Of a stretch of DNA of 64,000 nucleotides, positions 93 to 54,960 are shown in pieces. Origin of the DNA: Octopus vulgaris (Eukaryota); NCBI GenBank assembly GCA_951406725.2, contig OX597822.1, forward strand, positions 41,602,001 through 41,666,000. The letters run 5' to 3'. Numbering within the stretch: position 1 is the stretch's first letter; each line of letters begins with the position of its first letter. Both the position numbers and the translations under genes were made by a program. Below the pieces are notes generated by a model. That model saw only the letters and a program-made list of their open reading frames with translations, did not search any database and was not told where the DNA came from.

Positions 93-238
93 ACATTCGA
101 GGCTTTCTTCCAAGGAATCTAATGAGCTTGGCTTAGATTTTCCTTTGGGGCTGGCCAGGTCGGAGCAATCTCAAGATTAATCAGCCAAAATTGCGAAGAT
201 GATCCGGTTCTTGACTGAATATTGAAGGCTTCGAATGT
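93..238 (+). ncRNA. Second copy of the ring-topology hammerhead with mutated core
   Basis: Same helices, perfect stem I UCAAGA/UCUUGA and K-turn GC-GAA-GA. Core has GAAA changed to AAAA (187) and CUGAAGA to CUGAAUA (220). Confidence 0.55.
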
Positions 239-827
239 CCCGTCCGTGTTTTTTGTATCATCTTCTAAGTGTTTTGCGTTCTTGTCCCAGTTTATATTTT
301 TTTACATATACATATATATATAGCGGCGCCCGTACCCTTTTTGGTCTTGTATGTAAGTACATATTTTCTTTAAACTTGGTACGACTCTATAACACTGTCT
401 CTCTCTCCCTCCTCTCCTACATTTCTCTGCCTTTCACACTTTGCACTCCACTTTGATCTGTCTCTTTCTCTCTCTCTCTCTCTTCTCCTCCTCCATTGTT
501 CCTTGTTCCCCTTTTTTCTCTCTTCCTCTGTCCCTCTTTTCCTCTCTCTTCTCCTCACACTTGACTAACTTTGGACTGCTGTCCTTTTCGTGATTAGCAG
601 CCGCCGAAGCTAGACACATCTTTTTTCTCTCTTCGCCTCAAGCCATTTTTCTAATGCGCCAGCTCAAGTTCACCCGTCCTGTCGAAAAGACGCCCGTCTG
701 TGACGTCCTGTTTTTGTTATTATTATTATCATTATTGTTTTTACGTATTTTCGTATTCTTATTCATGTTATCATTATTATTTTTACGTATTTTTGTATTC
801 TTATTCATTCCCGTCCTTGTTTTGTAT

Positions 828-973
828 ACATTCGAGGCTTTCTTCCAAGGAATCTAATGCGCTTGGCTTAGATTTTCCTTTGGGGCTGGCCAGGTCGGAG
901 CAATCTCAATATTAATCAGCCGAAATTGCGAGGATGATCCGGTTCTTGACTGAAGATTGAAGGCTTCGAATGT
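828..973 (+). ncRNA. Putative hammerhead ribozyme with non-canonical ring topology and kink-turn; intact core
   Basis: CUGAAGA 950-956, GAAA 922-925, AUC site 903-905. Stem I 906-911/944-949, stem II 884-889/916-921, stem III 900-904/925-929. K-turn 897-899/930-935, helix 890-896/936-942, outer 15-bp stem 828-842/959-973. Confidence 0.65.
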
Positions 974-2908: not shown

Positions 2909-3075
2909 CAGCTGAAACTCAATGCTATCGTTAATAGCACGAAATTGCGTCAGACCTACTGGCCGATAACTGATGAGGAACTGGGGAAATTCTGTGTCTA
3001 TTTTCCGTTCGTTTCTGCATTTGCTATATACCTTGCCATTCCGTATCTGTTTTTCATTTGTGCATTTTCTATACA
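2899..3075 (+). mobile_element. Probable PLE terminal repeat, second family, carrying the same ring-topology hammerhead
   Basis: CAAU-G-C-UAUCG-UUAA-UAGCAC-GAAA-UUGCGU...CUGG-C-CGAUA-A-CUGAUGA (2920-2976). Related fragment at about 4367-4440 on the minus strand. Confidence 0.55.
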
Positions 3076-4700: not shown

Positions 4701-4879
4701 AGTACAGAGAGAGAGAAGAGAGAGATGAGTGTTTTTTACCTTGTTCCAACAATTAACACGGAAAAAATAAATAAATAGTTACCAGGTTAGCAAAAGTCTC
4801 ACTAAGTAAAGATGTTGTAACTCCTTGTTTATAAAGGTAGAAACTTCGTGTTTACGTGGAGATATTTTTGTATTATATA

Positions 4880-5097
4880 TATAATACAAAAATATCACAA
4901 GAACGCAAAACATCCAACCAGTTAGGTGATAGAAAAAATGGACAACAAAGATCCAGATAGACGATACAAAGAAAACAAGGAGGAGGTCATTCGGAGTTTT
5001 CTTTCCTCAGTCGACTTCCAAATTATCCTTGCAATTTCGGCTGGTTATACTCGAGATTGCACCAGTCTGGCTAGCCCCAAGGAAAAACTAAGCTAAG
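4880..5097 (-). mobile_element. Diverged copy of the 1-1103 pseudo-LTR with ring hammerhead (5' truncated)
   Basis: Minus strand CCTTGGGGCTAGCCAGACTGGTGCAATCTCGAGTATAACCAGCCGAAATTGCAAGGATAATTTGGAAGTCGACTGAGGA, and shares GTTTTGCGTTCTTGT. Confidence 0.75.
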
Positions 5098-5211
5098 AAA
5101 GGAATGAGGAGAGAAAACAGATGGAGAGCAGGAACAAAACTTGCATTTTGAATAAACGGTTGCACATGGTACATTGGTACATTGACTGAAAGGAATTAAG
5201 TGGTTGGAGAC

Positions 5212-45634: not shown

Positions 45635-45802
45635 TATATCTAAGAGATGAGGAATTTTGTACATTATTTACATTTGACGGATATTTGTCCTCATCTTGTT
45701 TGTTGTTAACACAACATTTTGGCTGATATACCCTCCAGCTTTCATCAGGCATCTTGGGGAAATTTCGAACCTGGATTCTCATTCCTAAGGTATTTTTCGA
45801 TG
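45635..45802 (-). repeat. PLE-type repeat with decayed minimal hammerhead (about 45706-45752)
   Basis: CUGAUGA-AAGCUGG-AGGGUAUA-UCAGCC-AAAA-UG-UU-GUGU; the changes fit CpG decay of CGAAACG. Confidence 0.55.
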
Positions 45803-54481: not shown

Positions 54482-54841
54482 AAATACACCTACACACATA
54501 ATTATATACAGGATGTTTGGGCTAAATTTTAATGTTTTCTTGTTTTGTTTTTTCTAGAACTCGATGTTTTGGTAAATAGCTAACGGCGTTGGAGGGTATA
54601 AAGATTAAAGTTGTAATTGAGAAAATGTTTGCTGAGATGGAGAACTGGAAACCATCCTAATATTGGAAAAGAGTAACCTGTGTCATGAGGATCCGCGTCG
54701 GGTATCAAAATGCTGATGTAATGACTGCTGCTCAATGCTTTTATGAACTCTGTAAAGGCTGTAAAATGTAACAAAAATTTCGGGCCTTGCGCCTAGAGTA
54801 GAAAAGAATTATGTAATGAGGGAAAATTATATTTTTAAGAT

Positions 54842-54960
54842 AGCAGCAAGTATGGGAGACAAGTCCTGACATGTTTCAGTCGTCAGGCATCCTCAGTTAA
54901 GCAGCAAGTATGGGAGACAAGTCCTGACATGTTTCAGTCGTCAGACATCCTCAGTTAAGC
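54842..54960 (-). repeat. 58-bp tandem duplication, each unit with a minimal hammerhead-like motif
   Basis: Minus strand CUGAGGA-UGUC-UGAC-GACU-GAAA-CAUG-UC-AGGAC, twice (one substitution). Confidence 0.6.

Follow-up and report, generated by a model that had tools for sequence, protein, structure and literature searches.

Repeat copies in the window

The window, a stretch of 64,000 nucleotides from Octopus vulgaris contig OX597822.1, carries a damaged copy of a repeat on its minus strand. Homology to the repeat family ends at about position 5098, inside a hairpin that we call Pin, so that the 5′ strand of the outer helix is missing, as the original prediction had noted. The 39 best other copies in the genome are 91–94% identical to this one. 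Its parts, all on the minus strand, are as follows.

4875..5098, minus: 5′-truncated, decayed repeat copy of subfamily B with its 3′ end in a TA run, identified by sequence comparison
5077..5091, minus: 3′ strand of Pin; the 5′ strand is lost
5072..5076, minus: 5′ strand of stem II, detached from A9, with G10.1 at 5076 and a lesion, G5072A; the stem II region reads GGCUAG (5076-5071)
5064..5070, minus: 5′ strand of helix d, with CCAGA at 5070-5066 and a lesion at 5065
5061..5063, minus: non-bulged strand of the K-turn, GGU here and GGA in the subfamily
5049..5060, minus: cleavage block, with the stem III 3′ strand, C17 (5055) and the stem I 3′ strand (GCAAUC 5060-5055, UCGA 5054-5051)
5055/5054, minus: predicted cut between these two positions, from the core pattern, 5′ junctions and a descriptor
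5031..5043, minus: stem II 3′ strand, GAAA (5038-5035) and stem III 5′ strand (CCAGCC-GAAA-UUGC, 5044-5031)
5018..5030, minus: K-turn bulge and GAU (AAG-GAU, 5030-5025), then the helix d 3′ strand (UUUGG, 5022-5018)
5004..5016, minus: stem I 5′ strand (lesion C5015G) and CUGAGGA core (5010-5004); UCGA-CUGAGGA spans 5014-5004
4988..5003, minus: 3′ strand of the outer helix P0, AAGAAAACUCCGAAUG; its partner was lost through truncation

The CUGAGGA, GAAA and GCAAUC motifs, with C17 at 5055, lie where they had been placed, and all hammerhead core bases of the copy are intact. When it is compared with subfamily B, mutations private to this copy fall in stem II (5072), helix d (5065 and 5021), the K-turn (5061, which breaks the GA) and stem I (5015). 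The copy is probably inactive, a damaged witness of its family. A perfect 36-nt palindrome (4861-4896) at its 3′ end is an inverted duplication of its last bases.

Plus-strand relatives at 127-263 and 862-998 are 74–76% identical to the minus-strand copy. The plus-strand parts are listed here, with a further repeat copy.

829..972, plus: near-intact ribozyme of the young subfamily A, from majority comparison, folding and the descriptor; P0 829-844/957-972, Pin 845-883, stem II 5′ strand 884-888, C17 905, GAAA 922-925, CUGAAGA 950-956
94..237, plus: upstream tandem subfamily A copy with core lesions (AAAA for GAAA, CUGAAUA)
171..905, plus: full non-coding repeat unit of 735 nt, cut site to cut site
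2909..3010, plus: truncated, decayed copy of a further repeat family of the same topology, with CUGAUGA at 2970-2976

The family of the 2909-3010 copy has different stems, and three relatives at 80–84% identity show P0, Pin and all stems when inspected by eye. A minimal descriptor of the topology matched the window only at C17 905 (plus) and C17 5055 (minus), and matched nowhere in 40 doublet shuffles of the window; CUGANGA alone is not enriched there (31 versus 26.7). No hammerhead appeared among the 150 of 228 matches listed in an Rfam scan of the window, which gave only microsatellite-driven miRNA matches. Energy folding, which cannot model crossing stems, recovered P0, Pin and stem II of the intact copy (z −2.71) and folded the minus-strand copy no better than shuffles (z −0.71).

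Two other places in the window resemble hammerheads. At about 45700-45748 on the minus strand, another abundant repeat carries a hammerhead-like motif in canonical order (CUGAUGA, stem II, GAAA), whose stem II 3′ strand is UCAGCC, as in subfamily A. At 54830-54954, also on the minus strand, every unit of a 58-nt tandem repeat contains CUGAGGA, CUGACGA and GAAAC; this is possibly an array of minimal hammerheads.

A hammerhead core split between A9 and G10.1

From 5′ to 3′ the strands of the repeat ribozyme run P0 5′, Pin, stem II 5′, helix d 5′, GA, stem III 3′, C17, stem I 3′ and a linker, followed by stem II 3′, GAAA, stem III 5′, a 3-nt bulge with GA, helix d 3′, stem I 5′, CUGAnGA and P0 3′. 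The hammerhead blocks thus follow a non-circular order, with the cleavage block first, then the GAAA block and last CUGAnGA; the 5′ strand of stem II lies upstream instead of following A9. This is not a circular permutation of the three-way junction without crossing stems seen in types I, II and III. Sequence comparison places stems I, II and III plus d between two junctions, joining them into a ring, with a K-turn consensus between stem III and helix d. The K-turn is predicted to bend stem III back to the second junction.

P0 and Pin abut A9 and G10.1. There is no linker in subfamilies B and E and a U.U in A, and the same abutment, with no or U.U linkers, is found in octopus, coral, ctenophore, hydrozoan, box jelly and acanthocephalan sequences. 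The two extra helices would therefore close the break in the core as a four-way junction. Judged from its sequence, the conserved structure is a new architectural variant of the hammerhead.

Conservation and covariation

The exact core pattern had 3,682 matches in the octopus genome (2.8 Gb) versus 0 for a reversed control. In viral contigs it had no match, and its two metagenome matches were rejected as chance, having no stems. From 124 matches, 120 full-length copies were retained in nine subgroups after three poor copies were dropped and one mis-binned copy was removed. All 14 core bases and the four G/A bases of the K-turn are fixed in all nine subgroup majorities, as is the K-turn arrangement of a 3-nt bulge and tandem G-A/A-G beside a canonical helix. 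N7 is A, G, U or C across the same majorities.

The stems vary in a paired manner. In stem II, the upstream strand and its partner ahead of GAAA change together (GGCUG/CAGCC, GGCCG/CGGCC and GCACU/AGUGC), the second of these belonging to a subfamily with a double change in stem III and the third to older subgroups. A pattern that forbids the usual stem III pair led to that subfamily (6 of 12 matches); its A-U to G-C double change has 360 genome matches versus 24 for a control, and a C-G to U-A double change in stem III is also present among the subgroup majorities. Blemishes include an A.C in helix d of young subfamily A, an A.G in stem II of subgroup E2 and three mismatches in P0 of B.

Covariation was counted in an unfitted MAFFT alignment of 47 copies, over 29 pairs in five helices; stem II was excluded, being out of register in the E subgroups of this automatic alignment. 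In this alignment 89.9% of positions are paired, compared with 18–44% in slid controls, and there are 123 double-change cells, with 13 pairs showing double changes, compared with 40 in shuffled and 11–32 in slid controls, although the copies are related and such counts overstate independent events.

The window copy itself reports on the family only in part. The original prediction took its stem I change, UCAA/UUGA to UCGA/UCGA, to be compensatory, and this is a true difference between subfamilies; stem I, however, has six base pairs, and a second double change, A-U to U-A, had been overlooked. The G-U to G-C change in the distal pair of stem II is present but one-sided, and the pair is broken in subgroup C. 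Two further proposals, helix d as CCAGA/UUUGG and the bulge strand AAG-GA-U, had treated private mutations as changes of the family: the subfamily B majority (31 copies) has UCUGG and AAA-GAU, and helix d has 7 bp. Calling GGCUAG and GGU lesions was correct, since among the first 100 of the 345 subfamily B matches GGCUG occurs in 93 and GGA in 98; C5015G, which puts a G.G in stem I, is an additional lesion that was missed. UUUGG, the AAG bulge, GGU, GGCUAG and CUGG are thus not subfamily characters, and GAUU is found in 95 of the first 100 of the 345 matches. As the alignments read, the stem I change is the only one of those listed from the window copy that is truly compensatory between subfamilies.

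The forecasts made for the subfamily were borne out. The K-turn GA is restored in 98 of the first 100 of the 345 B matches, and the 5′ outer strand of the subfamily B majority pairs with AAGAAAACUCCGAAUG at 13 of 16 positions. The proposed ring topology also stands, supported far more by the double changes of older subfamilies in stems I, II, III and d and by Naiad retroelements than by the window copy.

The repeat element and junctions at the predicted cleavage site

The repeat unit is 735 to about 830 nt long, with one ribozyme per unit and mostly under two units per copy. The units have no shared reading frame, and the 28 long frames in the loci contain only unrelated transposon domains. 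The 3′ ends of copies lie at a TA tract 142–152 nt past C17, and the 5′ ends vary; partial tandems and inverted 5′ pieces also occur. This insertion pattern at (TA)n is like that described for Penelope-like elements (PMC8557442). Subfamily A copies are 98–99% alike. Contigs of four other organisms and four runs that we guess to be RNA cover the ribozyme; such contigs show neither ends nor levels.

If tandem transcripts are cut, genomic copies beginning at the cut would be expected. We screened for copies with a base other than C just ahead of the stem I 3′ strand and classified them by eye. Subfamilies A and C gave 346 matches. Of the first 100, 77 join the repeat to foreign DNA, mostly (TA)n, exactly at the predicted cut; two control sites gave 12 of 59 and no more than 21 of 86 (P ~2e-12 and 5e-13 versus the cut site). 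The pile-up is bracketed by controls on the 3′ side of the cut only, and the junction position is ambiguous by one base, a T common to the TA target. In subfamily B the pile-up is weak, with 12 of 55 junctions at the cut versus 3 of 47 at the control (P 0.047); for junctions to TA only the figures are 5 of 55 and 0 of 47 (P 0.06). Some of the control-site matches form another subfamily, whose stem III has GCGAUC and whose stem I has UCAGGA. Two loci, C5:20368563 and C5:31479813, carry a single additional A precisely at the boundary of C17 and the base that follows it, which might derive from a ligation or a template-jump junction.

Taken with the conserved core, these junctions make self-cleavage by intact members likely, to a degree that we would call high. 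A conserved fold without catalysis would serve instead as a structure for reverse transcriptase binding or packaging, and the 5′ ends would pile up from stalling of the enzyme. A Penelope-like reverse transcriptase does bind an RNA structure, and hammerhead cleavage is described as dispensable in vitro (PMC11167929); moreover, most repeat copies span the cut site, and copies of the Naiad type show no 5′ pile-up (2–4 of 28). Yet the invariant bases are exactly the catalytic ones of the hammerhead, with N7 free; no majority and no Naiad sequence that we read has G at H17, which is always C or A; and the pile-up falls at the predicted phosphodiester, not four bases further. We regard a non-catalytic fold as unlikely.

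Cleavage could also occur in an ordinary type-SGC or a dimeric hammerhead, with stem II formed by the bases after CUGAnGA or by a second molecule, in which case the four-way junction would not be the active form. Subfamily A has GGCU five bases after A9, and dimeric hammerheads have been described from Penelope-like elements. However, the bases after CUGAnGA pair with the stem II 3′ strand at only 1–3 of 5 positions in all nine majorities, whereas the upstream strand pairs at 5 of 5 in eight majorities and 4 of 5 in one, and the abutment of P0 and Pin on A9 and G10.1 is kept from octopus to acanthocephalan. These observations leave such a form slightly less credible than a non-catalytic one. 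Chance complementarity in a decayed repeat, with changes inherited by descent and the structure unselected, is very improbable: the copies are indeed related and the window copy alone folds like its shuffles, but several independent double changes in four helices, the subgroup majorities and the covariation test contradict it, the descriptor found nothing in shuffles, and the same topology recurs with unrelated stems in other phyla.

We therefore favor, with a probability of roughly 0.8, the reading that the minus-strand stretch is a truncated member of a retrozyme-like, non-coding repeat family, in which intact copies are predicted to fold as a self-cleaving, split-core, non-circular hammerhead whose likely origin is the 3′ ribozyme of Naiad Penelope-like retroelements. 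P0 would stack on Pin and cross the stem II axis as a four-way junction, keeping A9 stacked on G10.1 without a covalent link. Tandem transcripts would be cut after C17 to give monomers of 735–830 nt; copies starting at the cut would come from the cut linear RNA, those spanning it from circles closed by re-ligation or from multimers left uncut. A Penelope-like reverse transcriptase would use (TA)n targets for priming, some 150 nt past the cut. Against this reading, we found no precedent for activity of a split core, and the account of Eckert et al. (2023; PMC10085705) takes it as given that CUGAnGA is an unbroken block that stays joined to its stem II strand.

Putative ribozymes at Naiad 3′ ends and the mobilising element

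Craig et al. (2021; PMC8557442) reported Naiads as lacking a canonical hammerhead, flagging only "HHR_core" and "HHR_half_core" motifs, among them eight half cores. We surveyed by eye the last 250–600 bases of 31 of the 54 consensus sequences in their supplement, taking names on the assumption that the supplement file follows the order of the metadata. The split ring with P0 and Pin was found in 7 of 31 3′ ends (Obim, Ovul, Amil, Bfor, 3_Chem, 2_Movir and Plae) and an intact type-CSG hammerhead in 6 (Hcon, Hpol, Parc, 2_Nbra, 3_Nbra and Smim); the remaining 18 show neither form or are unclear. The 3′ ends of Naiad-1_Chem, 4_Chem, 1_Movir and the oyster Naiads have conserved structured motifs that look twister-like, which would suggest that Naiads swap ribozyme classes.

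The octopus form (Naiad_Obim, Naiad_Ovul) has stem II GACACC/GGUGUC and stem I CUGCCC/GGGCAG and keeps the K-turn. It shares its topology with the repeat, with no detected sequence identity. It has 789 matches in the genome studied here, whose Naiad-type ends are nearly identical to published Octopus sequences. Eight 5-kb stretches around such ribozymes contained no long Naiad frame; the link to Naiads thus rests on the published consensus sequences.

Cephalopod Naiads are described as long inactive (Craig et al. 2021; PMC8557442) and subfamily A is young, so the present driver of the repeat could be an element other than a Naiad. It may be a Penelope-like family with 781-aa RT-GIY-YIG frames, although BLAST of the repeat against this family gave low-complexity matches only, and a comparison of terminal sequences identified no mobilising element. 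The loci L201, L206 and their relatives represent a young family of this kind, with (TA)n ends and a minimal hammerhead-like motif (UUGAUAA...GAAAC) near the 3′ end.

Comparison with known systems

The closest described architecture is the type-SGC hammerhead (HRIMA-1), reported by Eckert et al. (2023; PMC10085705) from metatranscriptomes only. The repeat shares with it the S-G-C block order (cleavage site, GAAA, CUGAnGA), all core bases, a short linker between stems I and II, and a helix joining the distal parts of these stems (helix I in SGC, d in the repeat). In type SGC, CUGAnGA runs on into stem II without a break, and the RNA has its ends between helix I and stem III. In the repeat, block C is interrupted: the RNA ends fall between A9 and G10.1, where two extra helices close the gap, and the K-turn connects d to stem III. 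Core insertions described earlier by Perreault et al. (2011) are short ones only.

Animal non-LTR retrozymes are non-coding tandem units with one hammerhead each and are thought to be moved by Penelope-like elements via circular RNA (PMC7229834; bioRxiv 10.64898/2026.07.22.740005). The repeat likewise consists of non-coding tandem units with one ribozyme. However, retrozymes have type I hammerheads in units of 150–450 nt, whereas the repeat has units of 735–830 nt with no type I hammerhead, its ribozyme being invisible to type I descriptors. With Naiads, as described by Craig et al. (2021; PMC8557442), the repeat shares (TA)n targets, 5′ truncation, partial tandems and inverted 5′ copies, as well as the split ring and K-turn of the octopus Naiad 3′ end; unlike Naiads it has no ORF. 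The K-turn follows the standard kink-turn (PMC5435971) in its 3-nt bulge and in the G-A and A-G pairs beside a C-G pair. In the repeat it lies inside stem III of a hammerhead; the coral and several other Naiad versions lack it and use other bulges.

The full-text literature searched, in which few subscription papers are covered, yielded no split-ring topology and no non-circular hammerhead in an animal genome or in Naiads.

Implications

The split core breaks the assumption of an undivided CUGAnGA block in the 2023 classification, and the K-turn suggests how stem III reaches the distal helix, a point left open in the account of Eckert et al. (PMC10085705). As far as we could find, non-circular hammerheads would be new both to animal genomes and to any known element; the split ring and CSG forms together offer a direct answer to why Naiads seemed hammerhead-free. 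A natural four-way junction in the core also provides a ready insertion point for ribozyme engineering. More broadly, we lean toward the view that Naiads and their non-coding parasites are the genomic home of non-circular hammerheads. On that view, an ancient ring form with a split core would extend from ctenophores to octopus and would be active although A9 and G10.1 belong to separate strands at a four-way junction; nematodes and spiders would have CSG forms. Cleavage in vivo would be recorded as thousands of insertions, and the metatranscriptomic SGC and CSG hammerheads may descend from such elements.
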